A DNA stretch of 64,000 nt. It comes from Seison nebaliae (Eukaryota). Of this stretch, positions 13,331 to 53,383 are shown one piece after another. How positions within the stretch are numbered: the first letter of the stretch is position 1; every line of letters starts with the position of its first letter. The translations under genes and the position numbers were made by a program. The stretch spans positions 1 to 64,000 of the forward strand of contig JALJEE010002868.1 in the NCBI GenBank assembly GCA_023231475.1, in the 5' to 3' direction. The notes beneath the pieces are model-generated. The model was not told the DNA's origin, did not search any database, and was given only the letters and a program-made list of their open reading frames with translations.

Positions 13331-14983
13331 ATGACTGATGAATGTATTGGCACGTTTCGAACAGGAGGCCTTATCAATGGAACGAAGAGTTCGATATCTT
13401 TATCAATAAACAAGATGGATGAAATGATGAATGAGGAAATCGATCGATTGCGAAGTGAGTTAGAAGAAGCGGGAGAGAAGATATTTGAACGTGATAAACA
13501 GATTGAGGCGTTGATCAAGGTACAGGAGAAATTGGAGAAAGAGTATACCGAATTATCGGCCGCCGTTTTCGAAGAGGCCAATAAACAAATGAACTCGATG
13601 AAATTGAAAGAGATGTCAGCACATGAGGAGAAGAAGAATGCCGAAATGAAAGTTTTGATTGTTTTGAATAATTTATTAAAATTTGATAGGAATTTTTCAG
13701 ATCGAATGTATGACTACCGAATTACACCGTCTCAATCGTATAATTAAGGAAGAGACAATAAAGAAATCTGATTCGATGCCAAAAGTTTCCATTGAGTTCT
13801 CCGTCTCATCTCATCTCATCTCATTCCAATTGTCAGTTCTTCGGATCGTCTCAAATCTCTCCACAGGTCAGTTCTCACTCATTCATCATCATATCTATTT
13901 ACATTTTTACCATCTCATGTTTATTTTATTCAGTCCAATTTATCATCAGGTGCTCTATCGAACTCATCCTTCATTTCTTTCGTTCGTCGACATCGAGACA
14001 AACCGAAAAGTCATCGGAGAAATCATTCTAGTTTCATATCCTCCTTCACCGGATCCACTTTCTCCATTAACGATCTGTCAGATAAACAAATTTCGAATGT
14101 GGAAAGTTCATTTTTTATTAATTCAATTTCTCGTCTCTTAAATAATTTTTAGTTGAAGAAGATTTCGTCATCGAGACTAATCTCAAATGCATTTCTGATA
14201 TTAATTACAAGAAAAATTTAGAATGTTACAATGCGAAATTTCAAGTTAATTTTTTTTAATTTTTCTTCTTGCTCTTGTCGACGTTGCTTGGGTGTTTGGG
14301 ACGACGACAAAACAGAAAGAGTTTAAGAAATTTATTATAAAAACAATTTCTCCTTTTCTCTCGGGTATTTCGTTGTCAGTTGAAGGAAAGTTGTTTATAT
14401 TTCAAATTGTTTCTCGATTGGAAACGTAACACTAATAAAAAGCAAATAATCGGAAAAGATTTCCAGTCAAATCCATTCCTTCTCACTTTATATGATCTAA
14501 TCAAATCAGTTATTCCCATAGATGGCGATATAGTTTATTTTTATTAATTTATCATCTAATTCATCTCATGACTTTTTTTTTTGTTAAGTTCACTTCATTA
14601 TTCCACTCCATCATCACTCATACCATCGATATTCAACCATTAAGGTTTCCTCTCCATCTTAATTCATCACCATGTCTCCAACATGACCATTTTTGTCCAC
14701 TCCAGGAAAAATAAGAACAATGATAATAATTTTACTCATTCAATGAAATTAGACGAAAGTTGTAAACTAATTGAAATTAGTGAAGAAACGAGAAATAAAG
14801 TTTAGTTTGAAATTATTTTGCTATTAATCTCTTCTGAAGATCATCGCAATTTGTAATCTGATCGATTATCTGAAATACATCGCGACGGAAGTGGTGAAGT
14901 GTAATGAGATTGAAATGTACGCTCGAATAATACAACATCTCTCAATCTGCTTATTAAGTAAATTTGACTTTTTTTTCTACTAA
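13331..14983 (+). CDS. RAB3IP: Rab3A-interacting protein / Rabin8 (Sec2-domain Rab GEF), multi-exon; 5' end uncertain
   Basis: Sec2 motif 'LEKEYTELSAAVFEEANKQM'. Downstream exons match the family: 'SHRRNHS', 'LFLDWK..NPFL', 'HTIDIQPL', 'RNK|IIAICNLIDYLKYI...LSKFDFFFY*'. Inferred introns: 13652-13700, 14031-14081, 14106-14152, 14533-14588, 14645-14705, 14800-14839. Others are unresolved. Confidence 0.85.
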
Positions 14984-16700
14984 AATACTTTTCAGAGAGT
15001 TAAAACCGATTTTTTTTTCAATTTTACACACAATTTACACATTTTAACACAATCAACACATCCATCGCCCACTCGAATGTGATTTTAATTAATTTCCCGA
15101 TTTTTTCCCATTCCACATTGACCCGTATCTACTTAATAACGTATATATACATTGTGCATATTCTTCGTTCTTGTTCATTATTCACTGGACCTATAAAGTT
15201 TATTTAGTCGTCAAATTTCATTAAATAAAAATTTTCATATAAAGAAAAAAATCGATTATTTTATGGTTGTGACACAGTCCGCGTGATTGAGGACGTGGCT
15301 GGAGTTGGGAAGCATGATTTCAAGGTGAGTTTGGATTCTAATAAAACTTTCTTTCTAATAGTTCAACATTTGAGATGAGATTTTCTCCAGAGAGTTATGA
15401 CACGAAGAAAATATTTGACGAGATTGTTTTAGAATAATATGAATATCTTCGTCGCTGCCATGACGACGAGATGAAAAGAAGTCGGTCAAAAGATGATATT
15501 AACATAAATTATAGGAAAGGTATTACTCGAACTAATTTAAGAATGGACAATACTCGCGAAATGTGAGGAGATGGACTCAGAGTTGATGGGCGTTGGTTGA
15601 CTAGAATTGCCAATGTTATTGTTCGAATGTTGATGGTAAATGTTTATAGTTCTCATCTGACGGATGAATTTTGGACATTCAACGAATTCTAGTGAATTAC
15701 GAGAAAACATTCTTTCCAATTGTCATGGAAACTCATGTTTTTCTCACATACCATCATCTTCTTTGGAGTAGAATGAATTGCGAATAGATTGTTATTTGGT
15801 GTTCGAATATGTTGTCGGTTGCATAATAATTGTATTAAGGGCAGTATAAATTATTAAGTCCTGTTTCATTGATTATCGTCATCCTTCATTCATTCTCACT
15901 CTTATATCTTCTCGTTGAGAAACGGGAGACTTCTGTTTTCCTTTTCACTTCCAAGAAACATCTCCAGGAAATATCAAACTTTCATATTTCTCATGTCGGC
16001 TTTCCTTCCTATTTTGCTACGTCGCTCACTCTGCTTACTGTACGAATGGGGAACCGACTGATTGGGAGTCGAGCAAGCAGCTTATAGTAAGCCTCCTAAG
16101 CAATTCACTTCTTTCCTTGAGAAATATTCGTTTCTTCCTTTACGGAAGTCTTTTGCTTTACTAACAAAACAAAGTGGTAAATATGCAAATACAACTATTC
16201 CAATAATACTTTCACTTTGTTTAATTGAGGTCACATCATTGCCTGTTACGTAGAGTTTACTGTTCTACATGTACGTATTCCCCCCCGTACCTTACTTGCG
16301 CTCACATACATGTCGCGGGTGAACCTTACGTGAAAGAATCTCATCGAATACTTCTATAGGTACATCCACTAATTTTCTGAAGGAATTACTCACTAACTTT
16401 GGTTCAATTCTTCCGATTTACAATAACCATTTCTTCCTCACTTCTTCTTCTCCTTCTTCTTCTTATACCTATTAGAGAATAAAACGTTATTACCATTTCT
16501 TCTCTCTCTTTCTCTCTCTCTCTGTTTCGCACAAACCGATTCATATATGAGATTGAATATGAATTTCTTTCTATTCGTCTTCAAATAATCAGAGAATAGA
16601 AAACTTAATTCTCCCAGTAGGCGAGCTAGCTAACGTGGTGAGCCAAGGTGAAAATTTTTATTTTCAAATTGAACAAACCTACGTCAACTCTTCTCAGTCA

Positions 16701-18745
16701 ATGACATTGAAAAAAATTCCACATATTCGTCTCAATGATGACAATGAAGTGTTCGAATCGTTTGCTCGTATGAGCGAACTGGGTAAAGGTGCATTTGGTC
16801 AAGTCTTCCACGTAATAGAATGTACGACGAGAGAGAATTACGCTATGAAGATTATTAGGAAACATAAAGTTTGATTCGATTGACAGGAAATTTCCATTTG
16901 CTCGCCATCAATCTTTAGATCGGCAGTCGTGAAGCAATATCTCTGAGTAATGAAATTGAGATATTGAAGAAAGTGAATCATCCGAACCTCCTTCGAATTT
17001 TTCGAGTGATTGAAACTCGTAAAAATGTTTATTTGATAACGGAATTATGTAACGGTGGTGAATTGGGCAGTGTTCTGAAAAAAAAGACGAAACTACCAGA
17101 GAGAATCGTGAGAAAATTCGTTCAATTGATAGCGAATGCTCTCGCTTATCTCCATAAACATTGTTTGTCGTTTCATCTCTTCTTATTTCTATTACTCCTA
17201 ATTATTAGCTATTGTTCATCGTGATCTGAAATTGGAGAATATTTTGTTAACGATTCCATATTGTGAATCTAACGATTCGGATATAAATCTCAAAGTTTCT
17301 CTTCTCTTAACTCAATTGCGAGAAATAGTAAAAAGATTTCAGATTTCGGTTTAAGTGAAACAAGAGCGACGCTCAATCAATCCGGTTTACTCGACGGTTT
17401 CTGCGGTACCCCCAACTATATGGGTTTCCGACGTCTTTTTAAATTTTTCCAACGATTTCTCTTTGTTTAATAGCTCCCGAAATCATCGACAATAAACATT
17501 ATAGTCAACAATGTGATATTTGGGCTTTCGGAATTATCATTTTCAAATTGTTACCTTACTCATTTAAATTATGGTTCTTTTTGATGGTTCCCTTCCTCGA
17601 CAGATTGGTGGGGAAATATCCGTTTGAACATGACAATTCGTCTCAATTGATGAAATCGATTTGTACGAAAGACGTGAATTGGAAGCAACTTCACATCAGC
17701 GAGGAATGTTTAGATTTATTGAAAAGAACGTTACACAAAGATCCGGCACACAGGATTTGTTCATCCGAAATTCTCAATCATCCATTCTATCAAGTTCCTC
17801 CTCATTTCACTTATTTCATGTTAACGAGGTTGTGATAATTATTAGAACAAAAAATTTACAGAGTGTGACATTCGTCTAACGAAGAACATCATCGAATTGA
17901 TGAGAGAACATAACAACGAGAAGAAATCAGAGAACGTGGTGGAACGGAATAAAAAAATCATCAAATGCTCTTCGGCGAAAACGCGAAAATTCGCGACGAA
18001 TCTTCCATTAAACGTCATATTTCGTCGCGATCGAATGAAGAGTCCCTATCCGAGGAAAGACGTCGAACAACGTATCAAATCGACGAGGGAGAAATATGAG
18101 GCTAAATTCAATTTGAATAATTCGAGAGATTTGAAATTATCTCCCGACTATTTACCGTTAGTGAATGATCGATATAATTGGAGACGGACGAACACTGATC
18201 CGATACGCCGATTACGTTCCGAACAGAATGACGATAAAAAGAATGACTTAACATCCATTCTCAAATCGGACATGAAACGACAAGTCCAAACGTCGATGTC
18301 CACAAATCATCCGATGATGAAGGATGGGGATCATCGGTCACAAGACGTTGATCAATTGAACGAGAAATTGAAAGTGGAATTGAAAGTGAATGTGAGAAGT
18401 AATAATGCACAGAAATTGAGAATGGAAGCAGCGAAGAGACAAATGCAATTATTCTCTTCAGAAGTGAAAGTTTCCAATCGTTTCCTCCCCAAAACCAGAA
18501 AAAGTTCTTCTTCAGCCAAATGTAAAGTTAGAAATTTAAGGAGAAAAACAAATTTAATTAATTTCCAAAGATATCCATCGTTCCAAAACGTACGACTACT
18601 CTACTCGCCACATGTGATAAATGAGATATCCTACAACTGCCTCCCTATAAATAGACATTGTCCATATGAAATTTCTAACATGAACCTCCTCTTCCCTTTC
18701 CCACATTCTCCATCTGTAAAAGCAAATCGGAAGATCGAAATTTAA
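16701..18745 (+). CDS. STK33: Serine/threonine kinase 33 (CAMK group) with a long basic C-terminal tail
   Basis: Motifs: 'KIPHIRL', 'LGKGAFG', 'IVHRDLKLENIL..INLK|ISDFGL', 'CGTPNYM|APE', 'YSQQCDIW', 'NIIELMR'. Introns: 16869-16918, 17163-17208, 17295-17335, 17424-17473, 17550-17603, 17794-17845. The tail may contain further introns. Confidence 0.9.
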
Positions 18746-18813
18746 GAAAATCGTTTAGTTCTCATTGTGGAAAGAAGTCTCATTCGATCGAAAAATCGTT
18801 TTTTCAACTTCTC

Positions 18814-21308: not shown

Positions 21309-21340
<32 letters not shown>

Positions 21341-21427: not shown

Positions 21428-24400
21428 TCAGTAAATCGAAAGAATACCATCATCACCTTTCCTCGCCCTCACCATATCCTCCTCATACGTAGTGATGGAC
21501 CACTGCTCCGGATTGTTGATGACTGGCGACGATTGAGCAGACGACGATGTAGATGAGGAATAATTGGAGGCGGATGAAACACTTTGTGGTGAGTACAGAG
21601 AGTCATTCGACATAGTATGAAAGAGAGTGGAGGCTGTCACTGTCGTTGATGATTGTGAGAAATATGATGATGATGTTGATAATGTTGATGATGATGATGA
21701 TGAGGAAATATTATTTACAAATATCTTCTTTGGTGAACTACATCGGAAATGGGAATATTGAGACTTTGAGAAATTATCAAGATCTTCATTATTAATACGA
21801 TCCAATTTCCTTGCTGTCGTCGTCGGTGTTGTTGTTGTGGTTGGATCTTCTTTAATGAGCGGTATTCTAACAGAAAGTAACGGTAGAATGGTGAAGGATG
21901 TTGTTGTTGTTGTTTTCCTATTTGTTCCAATGTTTTCCGTTGATGACGTTTTGGAAGGCGATGATGTTGTTGGAGGTGTTGATGGTGCAATCGATATAAA
22001 TAATGGTTGTGCCCTTTCCTCATATTGATTGGATTGACTTTCCGTTTTATTGTCTCGAGTGGTGGTGGTGGTGGTGTGATCATGAGACGACTCGTCGATT
22101 CTCAAATCGGAGAGAGGAGTACGACGTTCTAATTCATCAATCGGTTCGATGTGTTCTGTAGACGAATATTGACTACGTGCTAGACAAATATCACCAACAC
22201 GAAGTTTGATGCATTTCATTCCATATCGACGTTCCGTCAACGACGGACAAATAGAACACCATTGTTGTGATATCGTATTAAACAACGGTTCTGCTTCCGT
22301 CAAAAAGAGGAAGATCTGTTAGGAAAAGAAAAATAATTGAACTTCATCACAAGAAAGAAATAACTGTTCGATTTGATGTCGTTCCATCATTAACGGACGA
22401 TGAAGGATTTTCTATTGACGTTGACGGACAAATGTTCACATCGATATGAGTCGTTCTTGTCGTGATGGTGGTTGATGTGAGTGGGAGACTAATTGAATCG
22501 GTCATCGAAGTCGTCGAACAAGAAAAGAAAGTTGACGTGGATGTTGTGGTGGTGGAGGAGATGGTGGATGTGGCAGAAAGAAATGATTGAGGAAGTACAT
22601 CCAATTTGAGTTTAACTTGTGATTTGGATCTTCTCAATAATTCGTCGTCTTCACTGGAATCATCTTTCCGGATTAGACAACTCCCACCATTCCCATCACT
22701 CCCACCATAATAATAATCATCTTCGGTCTGTAATGAATCAGAAGATTGTGATGGTGATTCGTCATTCCTCTTCAACGACATAATGGGTGATGGAACTGGA
22801 TCATTCTTGTCCAATTCCATATCAGACAACGAGAGAGAAGAGGAAGATGATGAATCTTTTATAAAAAATTGTTTCTTCAATGTTCTCGTGGGCTGACAAT
22901 GTTGAGACAATTGAGATTCTGCTATCGATTGTTTCGAAGTAGTTGAAGGAGTGGATGTGCCACTGAATTTCACATTTTCTTTTGATGACAACCACAAATG
23001 TTTGTGGTCAATTCGTTTGTGAATGTCGTCTGTTGTACCTTTTCCTAATGACTCACGATTCGTTGTGGAATATAAGAAGGATGATGGCGAGTCGGTCGTT
23101 GATGGTAATTGTGTTGATTTTTGATTAGACAACAAATTTTTCTTTTTCATTTTCCGAAATAGTTTCGAAGAGATTCGTCGTTTTTTCCGATATTTAAATG
23201 ATTTCCTCTTCAATTTCCTCTTATTCTTCGTTATAATCTCCAGAATGCGACAAGCATGTAAACGGATCTTCTTCAATTTCCTCCTCTCGTCTGTTGTCCT
23301 TAAAATAATTTGCTCTATAGTCGGTGTGAGAGTGGCGGTGGTTGGTGTTCGTGGAATGCCACTGAGCGATTGAGACATGGCCAAAGATGGTGAGCCTACG
23401 ATTGTGGTGGATGTGGTTGTATGAACGGTAGTGGAAGAAGGAGGAGTGACAGTGAGTGGAGATTTATTAAAATATTCAGCAGATGAAATGAAATCATCAC
23501 GATGTAATTCCATTATCGATTTTCTGACATTATCCTGAAGTTGAATAATATTATCGGAATTGAAAACGCGAAACGGATCGATTGGGAAACATTTGGATGA
23601 CGATCGTTTCGCTGAGGATTGTGTCGTTGGTGATTTCTTTTCTGATTTCTCCCATTTCCGTTGACGATTCTCCTTGTTCGATCGATCACTTCTCAATCTC
23701 TCGTCGTCATTACTCTCCATCATTCGTTCATCGGTTGACACTGGAGATATATTTTCAAAGTTCGTTCCACATGTCAATTCAGAAGTCTCTTCTGGGTTCT
23801 CTTGTCGTTGTTGTTGTTCGAGTAAATATCGATATAAAGAACTCAACAATTCTTTATCGGTCGATGATGTAGTAGTAGTGATGGCAGTTTGACTGGTAGT
23901 TGTGACATTTGTGACGATTGAATGAGAGAGATCTGATGAGAAAGTGGAATTCGACTGGTTCTCACGTTCAGTTGAGAGATTACTTCCATGGAAATTCTGC
24001 AAGAGGAACGTGAGAGCATCGGACAAGCGTTTGGACAGATATGAATATTCAGCTGTTTGAGAACTAGTCTCGGTGTGTGTACGAGTGCGACTGGATTGTG
24101 AAATTGTGCTAGATCTGCCTATTTCCTCCAATTGATGAGATTCATCTTTTTCTAATGACATGTCGCTGGTGCTCGTCCAATGATGGATAGATGATGTGGA
24201 TCGATGCTGTTCTATTTGAGGGAGTTGTGACAAATTATATGAATGAGATTGACAATATTGAAGTGGATTAGATGGGTGGGATTGATATGATGACGATGAT
24301 GATAATTCGACTTGTTGCTTCTCCTCCTCCTCCTTACTTCGACTACTCCTCAATTGACTTAACGTTCTCAACAATTCATTCGAGATCGATTCATCCAATA

Positions 24401-25363
24401 AATTGAGTTCGATAGAATCTGATGGTTGTTCGTCGGTCGACTGTTCACGTTGAGGAGAATAATGTGATTTTGGTTGGGACACACCTCTTCGTTTCGTTAT
24501 GAGACCCTCGATGAATTTCTGTCGCTGTTCCAACATTTTTGATTGGCGAATCCCTGAGAAGGAAGCCGTCGTACTAGTTGAAAGATATGAGTGTAATATG
24601 GAATCAGATAAATCTGGTCGTTTCTCTGATGATTTCGATACATGTTTATAGGACTGCTCTAATCTTAATGAAGTGGGAGATTGGTGTTGTTGTTGTTGTT
24701 GATGATGATGATGATGATGATGTTGTTGTTGTTGTTGTTGACGAATAGGATACTGTTGCTGCAATTGCTGTCTGAGGGAAGCATGAGGTAAATGACGAGA
24801 CGATGAATCATATCGAACAGATTCACTCGATGGATTGAAATCGGATTGAAGGAGTTCGGTTGTTAAATCGATTGGATTTTGATGTTGGAGAGAAGTTTGT
24901 ACATAAATTGACGACAAAACGTTGGAGAGATGAGATGGTATCATGCTCTTGGATGTGGTGATGGTGGGGAAGAAGGATGAAGTTGTGATGATTCGAGTGA
25001 TAGAACGATGATGGTCAAAAGATGATTGACGTGATGATTGTTCTCTCAATTGTTCGTGTCTCTGCGTGTCATACGACAAGATAGAAGGCGATGTTGCAGT
25101 TCTATTGATAGCAGAAGATATCGGTGATAACTGAGAAGATGATGACGATAAAGAAAACGGTCTAACAGATCTATCCTGACCATAACCCTGATGATATGCT
25201 GTTGAATATAAACATGGTGTAGTCGTTGAGAGAGATGGTATACTTTGATGTTTTAATTGTTCTTTTCGTTCTTGATGATAATGACGTTGTTGTTGTTGTT
25301 GTTGTTGATGGTGATAATGATGAAGAGGATTGTGTCCAATATGTTGTTCATATGAATATCTAA

Positions 25364-25402
<39 letters not shown>

Positions 25403-34000: not shown

Positions 34001-34901
34001 CCCATTGCCCCCAAACCAAATCAACCGACAACATCTTATTTGGGAATGTCGAACAATTTAAATAATCTTTTCTCCGGTACAATTAATAAGTTGGTCACAA
34101 TAACATATTCCTTTTAGTCGATTTTCTTCTTTTAGTAATTATCTTCCAATTCCTGAAATCGATAGTAGGAATTTATTAGAAGCACTGAAAATGAGCGATA
34201 TAAAAATCCATGGTGTTGGCCCGAACAACGGTTAGTTCAACTCTTTAATTTTTTTTTCAATTTTTTTTTAAAATTTCTTTATTTCAATTTTATTTTCAAT
34301 TTTTTTATTTCAATTTTTTTTCAATTTTTTTATTTCAATTTTTTTTTTTAAATTTATTTTTTCAATTTTAGATGCTAAAATAATCGAACGAGCCAAATAC
34401 CTCAAGGATTATTATGTCAAATTATGTACAGATTATCCTGTGGTACGAACGCTCAATCAAAAAAGTATTTTCATGACAATTGTCGAGGTTTTCACATTTT
34501 TTTTCTCTCCATCTCTCATTTCCTTTTAGAACATCCGTTTATCATTGACTGATATCGCTAATATTATTTTGAGTCGACATATCGTGTCATCGTTGGCACC
34601 CGCTCTCAATCCATCATCAGATCGCACAAAAAATTTAATAGCGTCAACATTAAATTTGATGGAGGGAAAATCATCTCAATCATCTCAAAACACCACTACC
34701 ATAAACAATAACAACAACAACAACAATCATATGAACAAGAAGAATGATGAGGTGATCGTGTTATCAGATGATGACGATGAGGATGATATTTCGAAAATTA
34801 ATCCGAATAGAACTTTCAATTTTATAGCGAACGTCGACGATGATGACGATGATGTTCTTCCAATCACCAATTATAATGATGAGGAAATCATTTTGGATTA
34901 A
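31085..34901 (+). CDS. ATRX: ATRX/XNP SNF2-family chromatin remodeller; first in-frame ATG at 31169, 5' end uncertain
   Basis: Motifs: 'LKKHQVEGVKFMWENCFES..GTGCILAHCMGMGKTLQV', 'DPGADLVICDEGHILKN', 'LTGTPLQNNL', 'FDASWNPSHDVQSIFR', 'HDSLL..EELTEAERVQAW'. 3' introns: 34090-34135, 34231-34371, 34488-34529. Confidence 0.93.
34245..34370. repeat. Degenerate tandem repeat (TTCAATTTTTT..) inside an ATRX intron
   Basis: About 7 units of TCAAT followed by T-runs. They expand the intron to 141 nt. Confidence 0.8.
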
Positions 34902-35155: not shown

Positions 35156-38100
35156 ATGTATCGGATCTTTTATCTTCAATTCCTCATCTATTTCTTCACT
35201 TGTTATTTCTTCATTCGATTATTTTAAATAAATCCTTTAAAATCTTCTCTTCTTCCTTATGAAAAGATATCGATACATTTAATCACAATTCAAAATGTTT
35301 TCATTTAAATTCCATCATCTTCATCTTATCTCTTAATTCCAAAAAGACATTAAAGGATTCCAACGAGGTACTTCCTCATTCTTTCGTCAACGATATGGTC
35401 GACCGGATATCGTTTTCCGAAATAGTTCAATTTCATTACTCTCCTTCAATCTCTTCTTTCATTATTCATAAATTCAGTTTTTGGCAATCGTCAACCATAC
35501 AAGAAAATCATTCCAAGTATCATCTTCTTTCTTTTCCGCATTTTTATTTGAATTTAGAAGAAATGAAATTCATTGCTCGTCCTAAATCTAACGCCGATTT
35601 TGATGAGGAGAAAATTGGTGTCCGATTACAAGAGCAATTGGAGAAGAGGAAATTGTTATTTCAGAAGAAATTGAATGAATTAAATCGATTGAAGAAGCAA
35701 TTGCAAAAACGAGAACTTCGTTCAAACATTTCATTTCTCTTTTAATTTTCTATCGTTTCAGAAACCGGTTACAATGATCAGATCGAACGATATCGACGAG
35801 AATTCAAAACTAAATCTGATGGTTTCCTCTCACATTCCATTCTCTATTTCAATTCTCATCAGAATTAACACAACTCAAACATTTCTCCAATATGAAACGT
35901 GACGCAATGAAGAAATTAAGTTAATATCTTTCCAGAAAAACTTCATTTAATTTCTATTTTCTCAAAGAACAATCGATTAATAAAGAGAAAGAAACGGGAA
36001 AGAATTTAGGTGATAAATATACTTAAAACGAAATTTAACATTCTCTCTTCAACAGATAATCAGATTGTGACGCTGCAGAAAGATCTTGAAACGAAAAAAA
36101 AGAATTTGGATAAAGTCGATTATAGTTCGTCTATTTTTATTCAGTCTACTCTTCCATAGAGAATCCCATTATAGAATTCTACAACAAAAGTCGATTGATT
36201 TGTAATTTGAGTGATACGAGAACCAACTTAAGTTTTCCTTCAAATTTATCTCGAGAATGAAATTCGAAAAAATAACATTCAGTTAACGAAGTGGAGAATT
36301 TGAAGAAGAAGATGGAGTACGCACAGAACCAGTTGGCGGATCTCCACATCGAATTAATAAAGAAAACGAACGAAACAGGAAATCTGACAAAAATTCAAAA
36401 AGTTTTAGTAGAGAATCGTTTGGCAACTGACTACAAATATATAACAACACAAATTTTGTTGTTCGATCAAACTTTGCAATCATTGGAATTGAATTCGCCA
36501 AAAAGTTCATTTTCCTTAAAGTTCCAAGTCAATTCAACTCGTTATTTTCTCTAGAGATGATTGTTAATCCACTATTTCGAGAGTTTCTCGAAAATCTCTC
36601 ATTGTTGAAAGAAAGTAATTTTACGAAACAATTGAAACGAAAACGAGCCACCAATTCTCCTTTCGGCTTAGCCATTCCAAATAGTCCTGTGGTGAAATTC
36701 GAGACAGGTCTCTCGTCCGTTCAACGTTGTTTAACGAGTAAACGTATCCAAATGAATTCATTGAGATACGACATGATTAATCTGATAAATCGTTCTTCAA
36801 ACTCATCAATTCTTTTTGACTGAATAAAATTAATTTGTAGAAATTCAAGAAGAGAAATCAGTCACAGAGAAACGTGTCATCGATTGTAACGAGGCTCGTT
36901 AGAGATTTTTATTATAAACTGTCCAACCATTTTCTCCCAAATAGATAAAGAGTTGAATGTAACGAAGAATTTTATTCAAACTAAATCGAATTATCTTTCA
37001 AAATTGACAACGGGTTGAAAAATAATTTTTGCACAATTTCTTTTCACATTATTTTCACATTATTTTCACAATCCGCCCACAATACTTTTAGAAGTGAACT
37101 CATTGTTAGTACGGAAGACGAGTGTACAGAATGAGACAGATGTTTGCAGTTCGTCTTTTTTTATTGGCAAATCGAAAATTCTCTTATCCTTAGCACAAAA
37201 ATATCAAACTTTAATAAAGATGGTGAAAGATTCGTATAAGGATTTAAGTAAGAAGAAAGGTCAGTTGGAAATGTGGAAATGGAAACTGGCAGGAATCACA
37301 ACCAATTATGTCAATTTAAGTTGGGTAATTGAAGGAATACTTTTCTTGTGAATATTTGAGATAGATGCGGCCGATTTGAATAATAAGAGAATGATCGAAT
37401 TGAAGAAATCGGAATACGATTCAACTTTAGCAAGTTAGATAAGAAGAGAAGAAGAAAAAATGAATTTGGCTTGAATAGAATTAAAGGAAGCATTGGAATT
37501 TGTGAACGAGACATTCAATGACGGTTTCTCCAATGGAGAGAAGCAAATATTAACTCTTCAAAATAAAATAAAAAAATTGACGACGAGTTCGGAAATTTGA
37601 TATGTTTTAACAATTTTAATTTTCTCCATTTCCAAATGAAAGAAGTGGCAAGTGTGACGGATCCGGAATTGAATAAAATAAGTTTTGAATTTTTGTTACA
37701 TTGTCGAAAGTGAAACTGATTTGAACGAATAGTCGACGAATTCGAGAGTAGCAATGTCGATTATTTTTACCATCCTTCCGATATCAACCTATTGGATGGT
37801 TTCTCTCAATATTTTCTCTTTAATTCTCATCTCTTCTCTCTATCTCTATCTCTGTAGACACTACGTACAGTTTCTTCAACGATAAAAAGTCGGCAATCGA
37901 TACGGAAATTGTTGCCATGGCAACTACAATAGGAACTCTATCATCGCCTAAAGTACGGGAGGATTTCGAAAATCCCAAACCCACTGCTACTGATGAGATC
38001 GAACTCGTCAAATGTGGTTACCAAACTAAAACTACTTTGATCGGAACGGCAAGTAAGTTTGAATTAGGCTGGTTGGATACCACCTGTCCACTATCCGGTA

Positions 38101-38394
38101 AATTTTCGAGAGTTACTCGATCATTTATCGTCGATCCGGATGCGGATCCGCCTGTTACTCCACCAGTCATCACAGTGTTAATATTGAACTCTCTAATATT
38201 GAAGATTTGCTTTTGATTCTCTCATAGTCGCGACAATAACAAATGGGAATTAACTGTAGAGGAATTGACACTTTTAAGTTCGAACGAAGTTGAGACGATG
38301 GCAGATATCTTCACTTATAAATGTTAATTTTTTCTCGATTTCTGGACAAATATTTCCTCAATTTTTTTCAGGTGATTATGGGACATGTTCATAA
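35156..38394 (+). CDS. Orphan secreted coiled-coil protein (708 aa), 23 exons
   Basis: Manual splicing of 22 introns gives one open 2127 nt CDS. Introns: 35202-35266, 35297-35346, 35425-35477, 35517-35557, 35720-35761, 35822-35862, 35920-35967, 36010-36055, 36125-36174, 36232-36282, 36505-36554, 36792-36840, 36898-36944, 37014-37091, 37149-37193, 37320-37364, 37434-37478, 37587-37642, 37682-37732, 37799-37857, 38177-38227, 38323-38371. It starts 'MYRIFYLQFLIYFFTYIDT' and ends 'YKCDYGTCS*'. Confidence 0.7.
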
Positions 38395-38762: not shown

Positions 38763-39960
38763 ATGAGAAGAAATATGTCTGAGAAAGAGAATTTCTTGCG
38801 CAAATTCAAGAGTGTGAGTGGCGACGGTCTACGACAATTGACAGCCACTGAATTCTTAGAAGTTTGGGAGCATTTCGACAAAGACAGTTCATGCTTATTC
38901 ATACATTCTTCCCTCCACCCTATCCCTCGCATTCTCCATCACTTCCACAGATAACGGTTATATTGAGAATGATGAACTCGATGAATTCTTGATACAATTA
39001 GCAACATCGAAACAATCATCTTTCAATCCGAATGTTTCCTCATCGTTTTTTCATGAAAAAGAAAAAATAAATAATTTTATTTCTTCTCAGGCAATTCCCC
39101 GAGTAGCCATGGAAGACATGAAAGAATGTTTCCTTGCCGCTTATGATGAGAATGATGACGGAAAAATTGAGATTAGTGAAGTTGATCATGATTCTCTTTT
39201 TTCTCTTTCTCTTTTAACTTTTTCTCTCATCGAGGACAGTTGGCCGAATTACTACCAACTGAAGAGAATTTTCTACTTTTATTCCGTAAATCGAATCCTC
39301 TCGAATCGAGCGGTGAATTCATGAAGGTTATCCCAAATTTCTTTGAATGTTTTGAGGCAATTTAAAAGGAAAATAAAGATTTGGCGAATGTTCGACGACG
39401 ACTGCAGCGGAAGTATTGACAAATCGGAATTGAACGGATTCATACGTTCGCTCATCAGTCAGACGAAGAAGAAAAGTTCGACGATAAAGAAAACCACTTC
39501 TTTAGATATCGACGAAGAGAAGATCGAAGAATATGCTGTCAGTATTCTCCGAATATTCGATACGAACAATGACGGTAAATTGGAATTATGTGAAATGACG
39601 AAGTTACTCCCTGTCAAAAACAACTTCCTCCACAACATAGACGACATCGGCTATTCAGGTTTGATCGACGATGACGATATCGATGAAATCTTCGACAAAT
39701 ACGACGATGACCGTAATGGATTCATTGAGGAGTATGAGTTAGATGGTTTCGTACGCGACATGTTCCATTATACACGATCCAAATCGAACGAAGAGAATGG
39801 AGATGTGAACGAGGACGAATGTCAAGAACAGTTAGAAGAATTCAAACATTGTTTGCTTACAGGTAGTGATGTGGATAATGATGGAAAGTTGAGTAAAGCG
39901 GAAATTAAGATGATATTACATGCAATGCAACAATCATTAAATTCGAGAAACGAGAGTTAG
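38763..39960 (+). CDS. Calbindin-32/Cbp53E-like hexa-EF-hand calcium-binding protein
   Basis: Motifs: 'NFLRKF..LRQLTATEFLEVWEHFDKD|NNGYIENDELDEFL', 'ECFLAAYDENDDGKIEISE|LAELLPTEENFLLLFRKSNPLESSGEFMK|IWRMFD'. Introns: 38887-38950, 39034-39090, 39181-39239, 39327-39378. Confidence 0.92.
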
Positions 39961-43255: not shown

Positions 43256-43302
43256 TGACGTGTCAAATCAAATCTCTTTTTGTTTTATAAAACTATTTTA
43301 AA

Positions 43303-44513
43303 TTAAAAATATTTCTTACGAAAAATGTGTTTGTCCTCTTCACTCATGAACGACGCTGCTAACGCGTCTTCATTTGTCTTCTTTAAAACTTCTTCTGATA
43401 ATTTCATTCCGTTCCTTGATATATCGAAATTGTCGTTGATGTAATCGAGGAAGATTGCCGGATCATCCGAATTGATAGAGAAGGGCACATCATCATGTGC
43501 AAATCTCACACAAGGATGTTTCGTCCAATCGTCGTGAGGCATAATGGCTGATTGTAGATACCAGGAAGACCAGGGACAAGTTTCAAAATGAACTTTACTC
43601 GTTCTAGCTAAATCGTAAATTTTTCCATCGTCCAACACATGATAGCCATGACCGATACGTTCCGCGAACATATCTTCTATAGCTTGTTTGACGTGGAAGG
43701 CTGGTCCTGATTCACCTGCATGAACAGTACGATGAATTCCTAAATCCCGAGCTTTCTTGAATGCATCGATATGTCGTTGATCGATTGGATCGGTCACTGG
43801 TTCACCACCAGCTAAATCCATTCCAACGATCATATTTCTTCCCTGGAATTTTTCAATTAATTCAACAATTTCCATCGACTTCTCTGGTTCATGTTCCATA
43901 CAACATAGAATTAGTTTCACATCGATATCGGAACTTTTCCCTTTTTCAACACCTCGAATAGCTGCCTCGACTACTTGTTCGCCAGTGAAATTATTAGTGG
44001 TGAGAGTAAATGGAGCGAATCGTCCTTCCACATATCTCAGTCCTTTATTCTTCATATCTTTCGTGAATTCTTCGAATATCAATTCAATAGCAACTTCATC
44101 ACCGGAAAATAATGGTGTAATGACTTCGAACACTTTCAAGAAATCGAATAAGTGACCACGTTTTCTGTATATCGTTTCGTTGAAAGGTGGAGGTTCGACA
44201 CCCTTCAATTTCGCCAACTTCTTCACCGTATCGTAACTTATGGCACCGTCAACATGAACGTGCAATTCGATTAATGGCTTCGTCATTTTCGTACCTTTCA
44301 ATTTCAAGACGGTGAATAATGTGGCGATACTGGCGGCTAGTGTCTAGAAAGAAGAAGGAATTATAGATGAGTGAAATATTGATTTAAATCGATGAAATCG
44401 AAATGGTAGGTAATCATTATAGCAATAGATCTAATTGAAGTGAGATGTAGAAAAGAAATGCTTACGACGAAAATGATAAGGGAAATCAATGTTATGCGAC
44501 GAGTTCGCTCCAT
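43303..44513 (-). CDS. ADA: Adenosine deaminase (ADA1 type) with an N-terminal hydrophobic segment
   Basis: Motifs: 'ELHVHVDG', 'YVEGRFAP', 'HRTVHAGE', 'AERIGHGY', 'HFETCPWSS', 'SINSDDP'. Exon 1 (44513-44466) joins in frame across a GTAAG..TAG intron at 44465-44344. Confidence 0.92.
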
Positions 44514-45106
44514 TATTTCTTTAAACTGAATTTAATGTACACTCTCTAAAGGAAAAGACGAGTCTGAAAGATGAATTGTAATTCTTCCTCTTTTAAACCA
44601 AACAAACAATGATAATTGAAAGAGATTGTAAACATTCTTTATTTATATTCTCCTCTCTATATACATACATTAATACATATGGACAATATAGACTGATACA
44701 TCAGATACGTTAGAAATTGCAAGATCGTCGTTGTTGTACGTAGATGAGTACACATCGATTGGACACGATTATTGGAGAGAAAATGTGTTTACTATTTTTT
44801 TCTTTTCGTATCAATTTTATTTGTTCAGAAAATTTTTGTTTTATTTCTCAATTTTTGATAGAGTCAATAAAATTCAACTAATACAAAGATATAAATCAGT
44901 TTTTATGAGACAATCGTTTAACGGAAATCCTTTTTTCGTGGTTGCAAAGATGAAAAGACCAGTTCTTCTAGTCATTCTAACAAAACGATTGAAATGAAGG
45001 ATGGAAGTCTTCGTTCAGGAAGTGAGGGAAGAGATTGGAATTGAGGAAAGGAATGAGAATGTGTTCCGTTCGAAAAGCAAGCTATTAATTAAATTAGGAA
45101 AGGACA

Positions 45107-45856
45107 ATGTCGGGACGGAAGTTGAGGATATTGTGTATTCATGGATATCGACAGAATTCGCGAACTTTCTACCAGAAATTGGGCTCGCTAAGAAAATCGT
45201 CAAAATCTTTGGCTGAATATAGTTTTAATCGGATCATCTCTTCCACTAATCTCTTCCTCTACTAGTCATTCCAACGGCTCCATTGAAAGTTCCGGACAAA
45301 TTGAGTGATGAGGATGACGCGGAATTCGGGTGGTGGTTCTCTCACAAAACTGATGATGGAAGTCATCGATATAATTGTTTAATAGAGACGGAAGCAGCAT
45401 TAGATTATGATATTTCTTTACGATTCATGCAACAGTTCGTATCGGAGAATGGTCCGTTCGATGGAATAGTGGCTTTCAGTCAAGGTGCTTCATTTGCATC
45501 ACTCATCATGAACAATAGTTTGTGTTTGTTCCACAATTAATTCATTCTTCTTGTTAGTTAAGGGACTTAAGTTTGTTATTCTCTTTTCTGGTTTCATAAC
45601 TGGACAGAAGTCTCATCGACCTTCATCGATGGAGAAAACGGAAAACATTGAAACGATCCACGTATACGGGTTGAATGATCAAGTCGTTCCAGTACAGTTG
45701 TCACGTCGTCTAGCTGAATGTTATGAAAGGAAGACGATCGTTGAACACGAGGGCGGACACTTTATTCATTTCCGTGACGAAACTAAATCAACAGTGTTAA
45801 CTCTGTTAAGGAGATATCATTCGATTGTTAATGATGGAATGGGAAAATCTTCTTAA
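45107..45856 (+). CDS. OVCA2: OVCA2/FSH1-family serine hydrolase (esterase)
   Basis: Motifs: '[12 protein letters not shown]', '[13 protein letters not shown]', '[10 protein letters not shown]', 'HEGGHFI'. Introns: 45222-45265, 45518-45557. Confidence 0.9.
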
Positions 45857-45980
45857 TTATTATCCTTCATGAGTCCAATGCGTGATTTGATTAATTAAAA
45901 TAAAACTCTCATAAATTTCATCCAACTCAAACTACAAATGTACATAATATTCATTGTTTATTTAACTTCATGAAACAAGA

Positions 45981-48126
45981 ATGAATATCTCACTTAAACT
46001 ATTACGACATCTGTCGTCGTTCATTCCCACTGTCGTTCTCGTATTAATCCCGATCGTTGCATTACCCATCCTCTTACAAGGTGATGAGGAAGTTCGTTCC
46101 CCTCTTCTTCTTTCCTTATTATTCTCTCTAACCATCTTATGATGACAGTGGAGGAAAGCAATATATATTATGATCGTGGTGGGCAGTTATTGGGTGACGG
46201 AGACACTTCCTCTCACAATCTCTGCATTTCTGCCCGCTATCCTAGTGCCAGCTTTCGGTATCATGACAGGGAAAGAAGTAGCCATCGCTTATATGAACGA
46301 TGTTCTACTTCTTCTATTTGGAGGTATGGCATTCGGTTCCGCTATCGAACGATCAAATCTCCATCAACGAATCGCATTGAAACTTCTCCTAATATTTGGC
46401 GCGTCGTCAATCTCGTTAGTTACCGGTCTAATGATTTCTTCAGCCTTCCTCTCCATGTGGATCAATAATACAGCGACAACTGTCATGTTATTGCCAATTG
46501 GTCGAGAGATCATTTCAAAATTGGAAGAGGTTCGGCTTGCCCACGAGAAAGGTGAAATTAACGAGACATTCGAAATGGAGTTCATCATTTCCTTCTCTAA
46601 CAAATCATTCCATTCAAAATTAGATCTACGATCAATTTGGAGATTGATGAGAAAATCAAAAAATCAGAAGAAATTAAAACGAACGTTCAAACATTGTCAG
46701 AAGAGAATGAAAAACTGATTAAAGGAATGTCGTTGGGAATTGCATATGCGAGTTCGGTGGGTGGATCGATGACACTCATTGGAACTGGTCCCAATACGAT
46801 TCTGAAAGGAATGTTGGACAGGTTCAAAATTTCCTTCATCGAATAATAATGGAAAAATATGTTTTAGAACTTATCCAAAAAACGATTTGAGCTTCTTCAA
46901 ATTTATGATGTTCGCCGTACCAAATGGAATTCTCATTTTTCTCGGTACTTACATTGTCATCATTTGTATGTTCTGTCGATCAGAGTTTCATCTTTTTCCT
47001 CTTTCTCATTATTATACAACTTCCAATTTCATAGTTTAATCATCCTCTTTAAACGAGTGACGAGAAGATCAGAAACGGAAGAAAGTATGAAAGATAAATC
47101 GAATAATATTCGAACAGTTCTCCGACAGAAATATAAAGATTTGGGTAAATTCAAGTTGTAATTGAACATTGAACATTGACTTATTATTCATTTGTAGATG
47201 GGCAGAAATTTGGGTTCTCATTTTCTTCATTTTAGTCATTCTACTCTGGTTATCACGAGATCCTCAATTCTGTCCTGGATGGGGAACATTTTTCACATAT
47301 AACGGTAAATCGTTAACATCTCTCCATTCTCATCAATTCATAAGATAGATTATTAATTCATTTATTATTAGTTATGCAACCGATTCATTACCTATCATTT
47401 TCGTATTGGTCATGATGTTCATCATTCCGAAAGAGAATATTTTCAATAAGCAATATTGGAAAAGTTCGATTTCTCTTCGAAAATTCTTCTCTTCCATCGA
47501 TCATTTTCAGAGAATAATCGAGGAAGTATTTTAACATGGAAATTTGTTGAAAGTAAAGTTCCTTGGGGAATGCTCATATTGATTGGAGGTGGATTCGTAA
47601 TATCAGAAGCTTCGAAAAAAACCGGTCTTACTAAAGTTTTGGCTGACGAATTGAAAGGTTTAGTGAAGTTGGGAGAGAAATCAGCACTCTTCTTATTAAT
47701 CATGACGATTGGTCTACTCACTGAATTGATGTCGAATTCAGCTGTGGCTACACTATCGGCTGATATAATGATGGAAATTGTTGATAATATTTCCTCTTAA
47801 TATTTCTATTTAATCATTCGTTTCAGGCTATCAACGCATCATTGCATCCACTCTATTTTGCTCTACCTTGTATCATTTCTAATTCGATGGCATTTATGTT
47901 TCCGGTAGCTACGCCACCTAACGCAATCGCCTACTCTATGGGAAATATTCGAATGATCGAAATGGTTTTCTTTTCTTCCATTTTTAATTGATTCTCTTAT
48001 GCTTCTCTCTAGATCCGGACTGGTATCCTATTAAATATCTTGGCATATATTTTCATATTCATCTCCGCTATCTCGTTGGGGGAAGCGGTATTCCATCTGT
48101 CTCGATTACCCAAATGGATGAATTGA
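45981..48126 (+). CDS. SLC13/Indy-family Na+-dicarboxylate/sulfate cotransporter, 10 exons
   Basis: Motifs: 'AIERSNLHQRIAL', 'LSMWINNTAT', 'YASSVGGSMTLIGTGPN', 'LWLSRDPQFCPGWG', 'TELMSN', 'AFMFPVATPPNAI'. Introns: 46092-46148, 46580-46623, 46822-46867, 46985-47034, 47155-47197, 47312-47371, 47464-47510, 47780-47826, 47965-48012. Confidence 0.93.
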
Positions 48127-48871
48127 TGTCATCCGAAACAATTCCTAATAAGTTCTATGATAAATGTAATATGTTGTCATTAATACTCTTTTTTTTTTTA
48201 CTGAAATTTTAATTTACGATTCAACATTTTAATCATCATCATTTTGAGAGTGAGAAAAAGAATTATGGTGACTCGGATTTCTCACCAACGAAAGAAAATA
48301 AATTAAATTCGTATTTTCGAGAAATTTGACGGAATGGACATCGTCACTTGACTGTCTAAAAATGTTTTCATTTCTCCCAAAATAATACGGTTAAACAATC
48401 AGATGAAAAAGTGAAATATTTTCTGCTCCATAATTAATTAGAGATAATTACGGAATATTTGCTCGTAATAGGAAAATCTCTTAAGGTAAGGGAAATCCTT
48501 CTAATAATTATGTCACATTGTCATTACCCGAAGAAGGACAATTATGCACGGAATAATATTTTTTCCAAAAATTTTATATTTCCATCTAATTCTTGAAAGG
48601 AAACATGACAAAATCTCGCAAAACAAAACTGAGATATCGCCATCAAAGCAACACGGGAGTTTAATTGTAAAATACGAAAATATTTTCCCTTTAACTAATT
48701 GGATGTGAGTGAGTGAGTGAGTCATCGTCGTCATTATGAGAGAAGCGCTCTTATAATTGGACATGGAGGAGATATCTGCAAAATTCCGTTTTCTTTTCGA
48801 CAATTTTCACGAGTTCGCCTTCTTCCATTCCTTTCCTACTTCTTTCTACGACCAATCCCACAATTTCATTT

Positions 48872-50014: not shown

Positions 50015-50555
50015 TGCGAATGAGCGAGAGAGAGTGTGAGAGAGAGAGAGAAATGGAATAATTCTGATGGAACCAAATCTATCTCGAATGGAATTGAAGG
50101 CTAAGACTTTGTCTGTCAATCAACCGAATTGATAGATTGTTATCAATCAATTTCTCCGTTTTCTACTGTCCACAAGCCCGAATTGCTCAAAGTGGCAAGA
50201 GAACATATTCTTATCCTAATTTTTTATTCATACAATAATTGACTTAAGTCGTCCAATTAATGCTCCTTTCACTAATCAATGCCATCATCTTTCCTCCATT
50301 TTCCTCGAAATTCTGTTGAGCAACACAACGAAACTTCTTCTTTTATTCGATGTCCCCTTCTCCTACGACTTTCTTTCTTCCTATTAACTTAATGGATTTC
50401 TCATAAATACCAGTTAATAATTTAAGTTTTATCGACAATTTCCATCTCATTCATAAACATTACCCAAAACGACTAATAAGGAGTGCGACTCCTTATAAGG
50501 CGACCCATTCCCTCCCAATTCTTATCATTTTAGTTTTATCATTTTACAATAGAAC

Positions 50556-50828
50556 ATGTCTCTTCGTTATCATTCAAATGCGATAAATGTTTTCTTGATC
50601 TGTATTGTGCTTTTCCAAATTACCGAATCATTCAAACTCCGATGGAATTTCCAAGCACCTACAATCAATAAAGACCAAGATGACTCCTACCGATTATACA
50701 AAGTTAATAAATTTCTCATTCTCCTCTTTTTCATCCTCCATCATCAAGTTATCCGTTAGGTCCACTCTAATTTCCATTTACCATTATTTCCCATTTTCCC
50801 ACATCAACAAGTTGCAAACTCACTTTAA
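50556..50828 (+). CDS. Candidate small secreted protein (71 aa, 2 exons)
   Basis: Signal-like 'MSLRYHSNAINVFLICIVLFQITES'. A GTT..TAG intron at 50703-50759 extends the frame to a TAA at 50828. Confidence 0.4.
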
Positions 50829-52249
50829 TGAATATTAGCACTCGAATTCCATATAAACCTCACAATTAACCATTTCAAACTCTTATCTAATACGTAGTCT
50901 CTATTCTAGTTTCGATACAAATATCAAAAACAAAAGCCGCATATTAAGAGAGGAAGCCTGCTTTTAGTTTTTGTTTGAACTTCTATTTATTTAGCCCATT
51001 TTCAAGCTATACTCTAACGCTCTCCAACTAATCCTTGAACATGATGGTAAGTATTTCAAAATTTCCATCATTTATCTCCCAACATTTCAGCATGAACCTT
51101 CTAAGAATTATCCACATTTGGTCCTTCCCCACGAATTATATATCCTCATCCTTAATTTATCTTAACTAGATTATTATTAGGTTTAGCCTATGGGAAAAAT
51201 TCAAATTCTTCTAATTCGAACAAGTTGAAGATATGTGAGGGCGTTAAGTTTCCAAATGAAATCGGTTTAATGACTATTGAAAAATTTCATTACTATTAAT
51301 CCCTAATTAAGAATGTCAGTCTACTAACGATATGTATCGGATTATTAATGAAACGAAATAGATGAAACATGCGATGGTTTTCCTTTCAAACCGACAAGTT
51401 TTCCATTAAAAAAAGTAAGAAAATGTTTCCTCATTTCCCGAAGGAAACAGTTAGTAGTAGTTAACTTCATTTCATTTCCATCGCTATACTTGAACAGTGC
51501 ACAAAATTAATTCAACTTATGATAATGAGGGAAATGTCGTGACAATGTTAAAGGAAATTACTAACAATTATAAAAATAAAAATATTCTTTTTGCCCTCCA
51601 ATATTTTCACTTCGTTTATTGAATTTGTTAGTGGAATTGTTCGTGGAAAAATTTATTTATTTGATGCGGAACAAAAGTAGTTTCAGATAAATTTCTCATT
51701 AAAATTCAATTTAATAAAATTAAGTTTTAAGTTTTTTTATTGAGATTTTTTCAAATCATTTAAATTTTCTGTTTCCTTGGGAGGAGAAGTAGAAAAACCA
51801 TTTCTTAATTCTATTTTTCTAGAGAATTGAAAGCAAAAAATTTGTGTATTACCAAATATTGAACAATCTCCTTTCGGATCTCAGTTCAAGAAGATCATTA
51901 TTTGTGGCGAATCATTTGAAGAGATTAAGAAATCGTTTGAGTAAATCGAGGACCGCCGTTCGAAGTTCCGTCGATTTACCCACAAATCCAACATCATATT
52001 ATCGACGTTTTTAACATGACTAATTTCAAGCAACGCAAAATTGAAGAGAAGAATAATTCTGGAAAAAAAAATAATTAAAAAAATTTTGGATTGAATCTCA
52101 ATCTCCTGATTTATACTCCTACTACTACTATGTTTTACTTCTAATTTATCTTTTATCGAGAAAAAAAAATTATGAAAATTATTCCATTTCTCTTTTTCCA
52201 TTATCAGTCTGAATTGACAGAGAATGAAGTTTTGAATTAATAAAGAATT

Positions 52250-53383
52250 TTATTTAGAAATAATCGAATTGGAGGAAATGGTAATTTCTAATTCGTTGTC
52301 GTTCATAATACTGATGTTATTTCTACCGTTCGATCTCTCGCGATCTGCTCGTCGTACTCCATTCGTCACATTGATATCGAGTCGATAATTACGATTTTTC
52401 GATCGTTTGGCGTCTTCATAACTGAATAATCGTTTAGGTGATTCTCGTCTTCCTGATTGTTGTCTATCCAATTCGGCGAGTTCTTTATCGAAATCTGTTT
52501 CATTTGAATCAGGTTTATTAGGGAAATTGACGGTTCTTTTAGAAATACGTGAATGAACCGACATACGTCCATGTGTTCTATCCGAATACATTCGACTATC
52601 ATTAATTGGAGAACGATGTCGTTGAATTAACGTCGATTTATTTTCTCGTTTTTCATCCTTCGCCAAAATATTCTTCAATAAACCATCTTTGTCTGATGAA
52701 TTCAACATCGTCTCCCATGACGATTGAGCATCGATTACTTTGTCTGTGGGATCGTTATATCTTTCGTCCATCACTTGTGCCATCTTTGTCCGTTTGGATC
52801 GACTGAGTAACGATCGTCTCTGAGGAGCTTCAGACCATCGAGCGAATCTCATTTTCATATTGGGATTATCCAACACTATTCGATATGGAGTGCGTTCATC
52901 AGACATACCATCAAAATTCGTTGGAATTGTCAATTGTGCAAGAACAGTAGCTGCTTGAAGAATATCATTGAAATTAATTACACCTTTAAACGGAAATGAA
53001 ACGATTAGGAAAAGGAAAAAATAATAACAAATATTCGGATTTACAAAATTGACATAAGACGCTTCGAATATGTTATCGACTAATTTATGAATGTCAGCAC
53101 TCTCCATTCCGAAACATCCCGACACATAAATACTTCTCCCATTGAAATTCGAATCGATTTGCAACGAATGCGACACGTCTTCCGTCTTCTTTCGACGAAA
53201 ATCATCACCTGTCAATTCTAATGATTCGAGTAACTTATCCAACTGGGGAAGGTTAATTAGATTGGATGAACGTTGGGAACCGAACCGTTCGGCGCGTTGA
53301 ATCCGTCTTCCTAATTCCTGTGGATATAGAGAGTGAAAAAAGAAGGAAAGAAGAATGGAAACTGTATGGAAAATTGATTCCAT
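52250..53383 (-). CDS. NCBP3: Nuclear cap-binding protein subunit 3-like (RRM-like domain)
   Basis: 'RAERFG', 'SIYVSGCFGMESADI..YVNFVNPNIC|VINF..AATVL' and 'MKMRFA' follow the NCBP3/DUF2414 pattern. Two in-frame 45 nt GTT introns lie at 53362-53318 and 53028-52984. Confidence 0.65.
   Translation of the reverse strand: MESIFHTVSILLSFFFHSLYPQELGRRIQRAERFGSQRSSNLINLPQLDKLLESLELTGDDFRRKKTEDVSHSLQIDSNFNGRSIYVSGCFGMESADIHKLVDNIFEASYVNFVNPNICYYFFLFLIVSFPFKGVINFNDILQAATVLAQLTIPTNFDGMSDERTPYRIVLDNPNMKMRFARWSEAPQRRSLLSRSKRTKMAQVMDERYNDPTDKVIDAQSSWETMLNSSDKDGLLKNILAKDEKRENKSTLIQRHRSPINDSRMYSDRTHGRMSVHSRISKRTVNFPNKPDSNETDFDKELAELDRQQSGRRESPKRLFSYEDAKRSKNRNYRLDINVTNGVRRADRERSNGRNNISIMNDNELEITISSNSIISK

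Follow-up and report, generated by a model that had tools for sequence, protein, structure and literature searches.

How do the short introns of an animal come to begin almost always with GTT, when position +3 of the donor is usually a purine? The question is raised by a 64-kb stretch of a Seison nebaliae contig (the window, analysed at its full length of 64,000 nt), for which the original prediction held that 54 of 57 reconstructed introns start with GTT and that this lineage uses a non-standard donor code. The +3 purine faces G44 of the U6 small nuclear RNA (snRNA) in humans (PMC11732430) and G50 in yeast (PMC3632134), while the 5' end of U1 snRNA, which pairs with the donor, reads AUACUUACCUG (PMC4856993). 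All of our donor evidence comes from this one window, and the introns are DNA-level predictions throughout, with junction calls that rest on sequence. We find that the GTT donor bias is real at the DNA level, and we propose, at a probability of roughly 45%, that a single change in the U1 arm, ACUUAC to ACUAAC, would underlie it.

Donor position +3 in the window

The genes were rebuilt anew, the earlier list of 57 introns not being at hand. A curated set of 44 introns was drawn from a forced parse with a neutral donor, at a posterior of at least 0.75, after removal of seven non-GTT rows (25243, 39103, 39176, 39413, 45662, 47553 and 53484) and ten GTT rows (14245, 14321, 18470, 39045, 40481, 40708, 40926, 41044, 45571 and 53553) on the grounds of long open frames, homologous coding sequence, a database model with another donor, or unresolved gene ends. 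Of these introns 42 begin with GTT, one with GTG, one with GTA and none with GTC.

As a blind test, we used a hidden Markov gene model trained on the window and given no information at +3. Forced through 12 gene regions with its introns left free, this model returned a posterior for +3 T of 0.77, with a likelihood peak at 0.8-0.9; a null set by intron composition (0.43) lay 18 log units lower, and a GTRAGT model about 179 log units lower. We also estimated +3 at 48 hand-chosen sites, leaving out the genes near 40450-43260 and 50537-51000 and allowing any GT within 30 nt, for which the maximum likelihood value of +3 T was 0.954 (interval about 0.86-0.99), with no need for C. The appropriate chance level in these T-rich introns is 0.47-0.70 as against 0.25: inside introns 53% of the bases after T are T, as are 21 of 30 after an internal GT. 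Nevertheless, nulls built on intron composition, on the base after T and on the base after GT in introns are worse by 26.3, 18.5 and 8.4 log units, respectively, so that +3 T stands above every compositional null tested. When GC donors were allowed, they took 1.9 of 47.4 expected introns. The 48-site estimate bears out the originally reported share of GTT.

Diverged contigs that align to the window offer another view of the borders. Four sequencing runs compared with 35500-48200 showed no splice joints: two behaved as DNA and yielded nothing but short or diverged pieces, and two yielded no pieces, a result with no bearing on expression. Six distinct pieces of at least 50 nt stood among those listed, beyond which there were 171 more: three start at a predicted acceptor and span the next GTT, with ends at +3 and +4 in two cases; the remaining three cross no resolved junction. 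Two intron borders of the uncharacterised gene at 37320..38371 are mirrored in this way, and we take the pieces as weak additional support for GTT borders. Pieces X1 and X5, at 37362-37694 and 39089-39184, are about 89-90% alike to the window, with a similarity that tracks exon borders, which indicates a diverged copy, either from a second lineage or a paralogue.

Junctions placed by homologues and by database models

Junctions were placed by homology with profiles of 58 SLC13 proteins and 86 kinase domains, all from outside Seison; around each of 16 introns, all GT/GC..AG placements that kept the frame and lay within 45 nt were scored, these termini being the only ones enumerated. Eleven of the 16 introns were pinned, all of them to GTT: introns 1-6 of STK33 and introns 3, 5, 6, 8 and 9 of SLC13. 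In STK33 intron 4, GTT beats in-frame GTC and GTA rivals by 12.8 and 27.8 bits, and in SLC13 intron 5 it beats GTAATT by 6.3 bits. For SLC13 intron 6, the GTTAAC at 47312 is the sole frame-keeping candidate, the GTAAAT 7 nt upstream being out of frame, just as the original prediction had stated. Placements were tied for STK33 intron 7, GTT led by only 2.6 bits in SLC13 intron 1, and SLC13 introns 2, 4 and 7 were left unpinned, other placements outscoring GTT, with loops missing from the mostly bacterial profile. Three of the four calbindin-family junctions are gap-free against chains of the secretagogin family, so that every one of the 14 donors pinned by non-Seison homologues is GTT. Under a null of 0.5 the first 11 would all be GTT by chance with a probability of 5e-4, and under one of 0.6 with a probability of 4e-3. 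The wider claim of 25 pinned introns, all GTT, stands for these 14 (six in STK33, five in SLC13, three in the calbindin-family gene), those of OVCA2 and RAB3IP not being homology-pinned here.

When database gene models are placed letter for letter on the window, they yield 26 distinct donors, of which 24 are GTT and two GTA (12 of 12 GTT in model P0121, 5 of 7 in P0180/P0181/P0001 and 7 of 7 in P0182), with a GT..AG solution possible at every one. They agree with the original prediction, yet are themselves predictions and no independent proof, and three of their donors (GTT 45805, GTT 44094 and GTA 39413) look false. On the minus strand at 44050-44094, the P0001 deaminase model removes 45 nt coding for 15 residues of a conserved helix; these residues align gap-free in all five homologues checked, and this GTT..AG intron is probably false. 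On the plus strand, P0121 runs the FSH1/OVCA2-like gene and SLC13 together across a 175-nt GTT intron (45805-45979); since the frame ends at a stop of its own (45856), this fusion is probably an annotation error. The GTA donor at 39413 belongs to a frame-shifting isoform model.

A bdelloid-like control

We scanned with the Adineta steineri deaminase and obtained eight metagenome loci with best-segment identities of 52-92%, which we call bdelloid-like. In three of them the deaminase introns (n=13) have 11 GTA, one GTC and one GTG donor. The blind control was run on five loci (L001-L004 and L007), with L005, L006 and L008 omitted as near-copies of L007. Trained freely on these loci, the model reached +3 A at 0.86, with 40 of 43 confident donors GTA, whereas the same method in the window, from a flat start, reached +3 T at 0.86, with 48 of 55 confident donors GTT. 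The bdelloid-like introns share with those of the window their GT..AG ends, a length of about 50-60 nt, A-rich exon ends, weak positions +4 to +6 and information mainly at +3, and they are comparable in T content (0.42) and in TpA depletion (observed/expected 0.69 in L007, 0.60 in the window). Because introns so similar use A under the same method, neither composition nor method explains the difference between T and A. The suggestion of a lineage with its own donor code is thus upheld. CpG is over-represented in both the window and L007 (1.27 and 1.44).

Donor, acceptor and class of the introns

The introns have a median length of 49 nt, 42 of 44 lie between 40 and 64 nt, and their interiors are 47% T, a level that is not exceeded just downstream of the donors (0.47). 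The donor consensus, (A)AA/GTT-N-(G) with the slash at the exon-intron border, carries information at +3, a small amount at +5 G, and some in exon ends that are rich in A; -1 G, +4 A and +6 T contribute nothing. Exon positions -3, -2 and -1 are A in 26, 22 and 24 of 44 introns against a background of 35%, in agreement with the earlier remark that -1 is often A; all 24 of the -1 A fall among the 42 GTT donors, with -1 G at background. Positions +4 to +6 had been described as free and +5 G as uncommon. Freedom holds for +4 (T in 16, A in 13) and +6 (T in 20), which are at intron background; +5 G is indeed a minority, but at 11 of 44 against 6.7% (p=1e-4) it is enriched, and we therefore regard it as selected. 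Among GTT donors alone, +5 is G in 10 of 42, +6 is G in 3 and +7 is U in 14.

At the other end of the intron the acceptor is YAG in 38 of 44, with T or C at -3 in 38 and G in none; 27 of 44 have T at -6/-7, giving a pyrimidine-rich 3' end, and YTRAY occurs near the 3' end in 24 of 44 against 14.5 in shuffles (CTRAY in 7 against 4.8). The U12-type donor RTATCCTT matches none of the 44 donors. A purine at +3 (GTRAG consensus), which is a usual and not an obligatory U2-type feature, is present in two of 44. The introns would thus appear to be U2-type in their termini and acceptors, with the +3 purine missing in most.

The two exceptions, TAG/GTGATA and GTC/GTAAGC, both match the canonical U1 arm well elsewhere (AG/GTGA, GTAAG), as do only four of the 42 GTT donors, although the two exceptions were compared post hoc. 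Longer introns, or those in untranslated regions, may keep GTAAG. A canonical-looking short intron, ATG/GTAAGTAT with an AG 44 nt on, stands outside the resolved genes at 51047-51090 (+). With the exon upstream of the GTAAGC intron (44466-44513, minus strand), the adenosine deaminase gains a hydrophobic N-terminal segment resembling a signal or membrane anchor.

A predicted one-base change in U1

In the mechanism that we favour, the introns would be handled by the major spliceosome and defined across the short intron, and the U1 base facing +3 would have changed from pseudouridine to A, so that +3 U would pair Watson-Crick in the normal register. Loop 1 of U5, which is U-rich, would base-pair with the A-rich exon ends, U1 C4 and the ACAGA box of U6 would pair with +5 G, and a wobble between +3 U and U6 G44 could be added. 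One may picture an ancestor with weak, bdelloid-like GTA donors and a relaxed +3, in which T-rich intron composition drove many sites to T before the machinery adapted to the majority base.

We compared the 44 true donors with 63 neighbouring GT sites, which a canonical U1 arm does not separate (area under the curve, AUC, 0.52). The best single-base change of the arm is ACUAACCUG (AUC 0.71), and a double change of the Entamoeba type gives 0.64; since this result follows from the +3 bias and is circular, it is a prediction and not a proof. A single changed base fits because +4 prefers neither T nor A, and enrichment at +5 G but not at +6 G points to a normal register. A U1 change is favoured for its precedent in Entamoeba, for the specificity for T only and for the intact +5 G register. 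A scan of the 64-kb window at Rfam gathering thresholds gave no matches, snRNA genes included. We hold slightly more tentatively the broader proposition that an intron-rich animal has switched its 5' splice site from GUR to GUU throughout the genome, with a one-base change of the U1 arm, its close relatives keeping GUA.

Several points weigh against a U1 change. The changed arm still pairs weakly, at about 5 of 9 positions with a mean modelled energy near zero, and a canonical U1 would suit the GTAAGC donor in the adenosine deaminase model. In Thecamonas, Micromonas and 69 Saccharomycotina species the donors are atypical but the arm of U1 is unchanged (bioRxiv 10.1101/2022.06.08.495308), and +3 C pairs with yeast U6 G50 (PMC3632134), so that the missing +3 C is also expected under a canonical U6. 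The 12-region parse, in which optional false introns are admitted, separates a +3 T of 0.7 from the best value by no more than 2.4 log units. Lastly, the change is predicted from the donors of a single 64-kb window.

What else could read +3

A standard U1 persists in several lineages whose donors are odd (bioRxiv 10.1101/2022.06.08.495308), which speaks for the main rival, one we think less likely, in which the snRNAs are canonical and the donor is set by proteins (U1-C, TIA-1-type U-rich binders, Prp8 or Prp28) together with a fixed intron length. U1 would then bind weakly or tolerate U opposite pseudouridine, and +3 U would be retained through the U6 G44 wobble where pairing by +4 A and +6 U has gone. 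In yeast, A3U introns are spliced better with prp28 alleles, and +3 lies opposite U6 G50 (PMC3632134), human donors are helped by U-pseudouridine contacts (PMC4856993), and downstream U-rich tracts let TIA proteins support weak donors (PMC2766253); the tight lengths and T-rich interiors of the window introns are also in keeping with protein-led choice. However, T downstream of the donors merely equals the intron mean, so there is no special U tract, and proteins alone leave unexplained the drop of A, the bdelloid-like base, to 1 of 44.

A change in U6, in which A replaces the ACAGAGA-box G that lies opposite +3 and forms a U-A pair at the catalytic step, strikes us as improbable. U6 is, to our knowledge, the most conserved snRNA, which argues against it. 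Yeast U6-G50A does make an extra pair with +3 U (PMC3632134), and the C. merolae box is altered to ACUGAGA (PMC10158995), but Entamoeba gained its GUU donors with the U6 ACAGA unchanged (bioRxiv 10.1101/2022.06.08.495308).

Canonical U1 could instead read the donors with its register shifted by +1, in which case -1 A, +1 G and +3 U would be paired. Such a register is known for human sites (PMC4856993) and would account for the enrichment of -1 A without -1 G, but it needs the +6 G and +7 U that are at or below background here; GTTNNGT and GTTRRG each occur in 0 of 42 donors, the AUC is 0.59, and bdelloid-like GTA donors also have A-rich exon ends. The scarcity of +6 G and the lack of GTTNNGT largely refute this reading, and we regard it as very improbable. 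That +3 is unconstrained and mirrors T-rich, TpA-poor introns is less credible still: T is common after T and after GT, and the loose 12-region parse does not strongly exclude 0.7, but the 48-site nulls fail without any need for C and bdelloid-like contigs of like composition use A. Just as little credence goes to a reconstruction artefact, in which GTT is picked since it is common near exon ends, as the false GTT introns of the database models and the 70 GTT among 121 GT sites in the 60-nt windows might suggest, given that foreign homologues fix 14 of 14 donors to GTT and that the blind model converges on T here and on A in the control.

Comparison with known systems

The closest precedent for the proposed U1 change is Entamoeba, whose GUUUGU(U) donors co-evolved with a U1 arm changed to ACAAAC, within AACAAAC, while the U6 ACAGA was kept (Roy and Bowser, bioRxiv 10.1101/2022.06.08.495308). 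As described there, Entamoeba shares with the window +3 U in nearly all introns, an AT-rich reduced genome and a retained +5 G. It differs in being an intron-poor protist with a strict motif of six to seven bases (88-90% GUUUGU), whereas the window, from an intron-rich animal, has only +3 fixed, with +4 and +6 free and +5 G at 25%; the counts of +4 T, +5 G and +6 T given above are far from GUUUGU. The U1 change is shown in Entamoeba and only predicted for Seison. The donor bias works like that of Entamoeba without its strict motif, and differs from that of the bdelloid-like relatives.

Human donors read in shifted or bulged registers also have a GUU start and -1 A, but they are rare and need +6 G (PMC4856993), while in the window GUU is the norm. 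The distinction between U5-class and U6-class 5' splice sites is likewise related, through a weak intron side and reliance on the exon side and U5 loop 1, yet in those sites +3 is usually A or G (PMC11732430), as against U here, with A-rich exon ends without -1 G. In the literature searched, with subscription journals largely outside its coverage, we found no GTT donor code for Seison, rotifers or any other animal, and the passages and two supplements of PMC8351084 that were searched mention compact genes and hold nothing on donor motifs. The code is apparently undescribed in animals. The idea itself has a precedent in Entamoeba.

Introns and genes of the window

Four genes of the window match database proteins letter for letter, three of them labelled Seison nebaliae. 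The SLC13 and calbindin-family genes match proteins so labelled at 100%, the kinase gene matches P0182 at 100%, and the deaminase frame (43306-44295, minus strand) is identical over 315 aligned residues, bar the 15-residue gap, to a Seison nebaliae-labelled protein. By these matches the window comes from S. nebaliae or from something that cannot be told apart from it. The gene names first given are sound: the top solved-structure matches are STK33 for the kinase, secretagogin and calbindin (secretagogin scoring higher) for the calbindin-family gene and RAB3IP for the RAB3IP-like gene, and Pfam gives FSH1 for the OVCA2-like gene and the sodium:sulfate symporter family for SLC13.

Intron positions in the window, with the donor and the basis of each call
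Feature	Position	Strand	Donor and basis
RAB3IP-like intron	13652..13700	+	GTTTTG, ab initio
RAB3IP-like intron	14106..14152	+	GTTCAT, ab initio
STK33 intron 1	16869..16918	+	GTTTGA, homology-pinned, 31 bits over next placement
STK33 intron 2	17163..17208	+	GTTTGT, homology-pinned
STK33 intron 3	17295..17335	+	GTTTCT, homology-pinned
STK33 intron 4	17424..17473	+	GTTTCC, pinned over in-frame GTC and GTA
STK33 intron 5	17550..17603	+	GTTACC, pinned over retention
STK33 intron 6	17794..17845	+	GTTCCT, sole donor available
STK33 intron 7	18527..18570	+	GTTAGA, database model only
Intron between two long open frames	22316..22364	-	GTTATT
SNF2-family gene 3' end, first of three GTT introns	34090..34135	+	donors of the others 34231 and 34488; ab initio
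Uncharacterised gene, 8 intron sites	35720..36840	+	7 GTT, 1 GTG
Exception, TAG/GTGATA	36010..36055	+	picked with posterior 1.0
Uncharacterised gene, 7 intron sites	37320..38371	+	GTT in best parse; first site ambiguous under neutral donor
Calbindin/secretagogin-family intron 1	38887..38950	+	GTTCAT, gap-free junction
Calbindin/secretagogin-family intron 2	39034..39090	+	GTTTCC, database model
Calbindin/secretagogin-family intron 3	39181..39239	+	GTTGAT, gap-free junction
Calbindin/secretagogin-family intron 4	39327..39378	+	GTTATC, gap-free junction
Exception, adenosine deaminase first intron (122 nt)	44344..44465	-	GTAAGC, canonical-looking
FSH1/OVCA2-like intron 1	45222..45265	+	GTTTTA, database model
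FSH1/OVCA2-like intron 2	45518..45557	+	GTTTGT, database model
SLC13, 9 introns	46092..48012	+	all GTT, 5 homology-pinned
SLC13 donors	46092, 46580, 46822, 46985, 47155, 47312, 47464, 47780, 47965	+	GTT
SLC13 intron 6	47312..47371	+	GTTAAC, sole frame-keeping placement
Two 45-nt in-frame introns	52984..53362	-	donors 53362 GTTTCC and 53028 GTTATT; ab initio

Elsewhere in the window, an intron-free open frame of 1930 codons (3130-8922, plus strand) has no Pfam match, and a very long, low-complexity gene rich in Ser/Thr/Gln (21428-22318 and 22347-25940, minus strand) has a single 49-nt GTT intron between its two parts. Broken frames at 399-2068 (+) and 54504-55001 (-) resemble, by eye, pieces of long interspersed nuclear element (LINE) reverse transcriptase. 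An intron-free transmembrane kinase at 58712-60427 (+) has a Pfam kinase match and, by eye, a likeness to TGF-beta/BMP receptors.

Significance of a GTT donor code

A purine at donor +3 is among the most constant of animal splice signals. Its exchange for U across many introns, in an animal whose relatives keep A in introns of like size and composition, offers a natural experiment on the reader of +3, be it U1, U6 or proteins, and equally on how a single machine and the thousands of sites it reads can change jointly. Seison genes would be mis-called by gene predictors that had been trained on other animals, and existing models already carry false GTT introns. If the U1 change is true, Seison would provide an animal case of co-evolution between splice sites and an snRNA.

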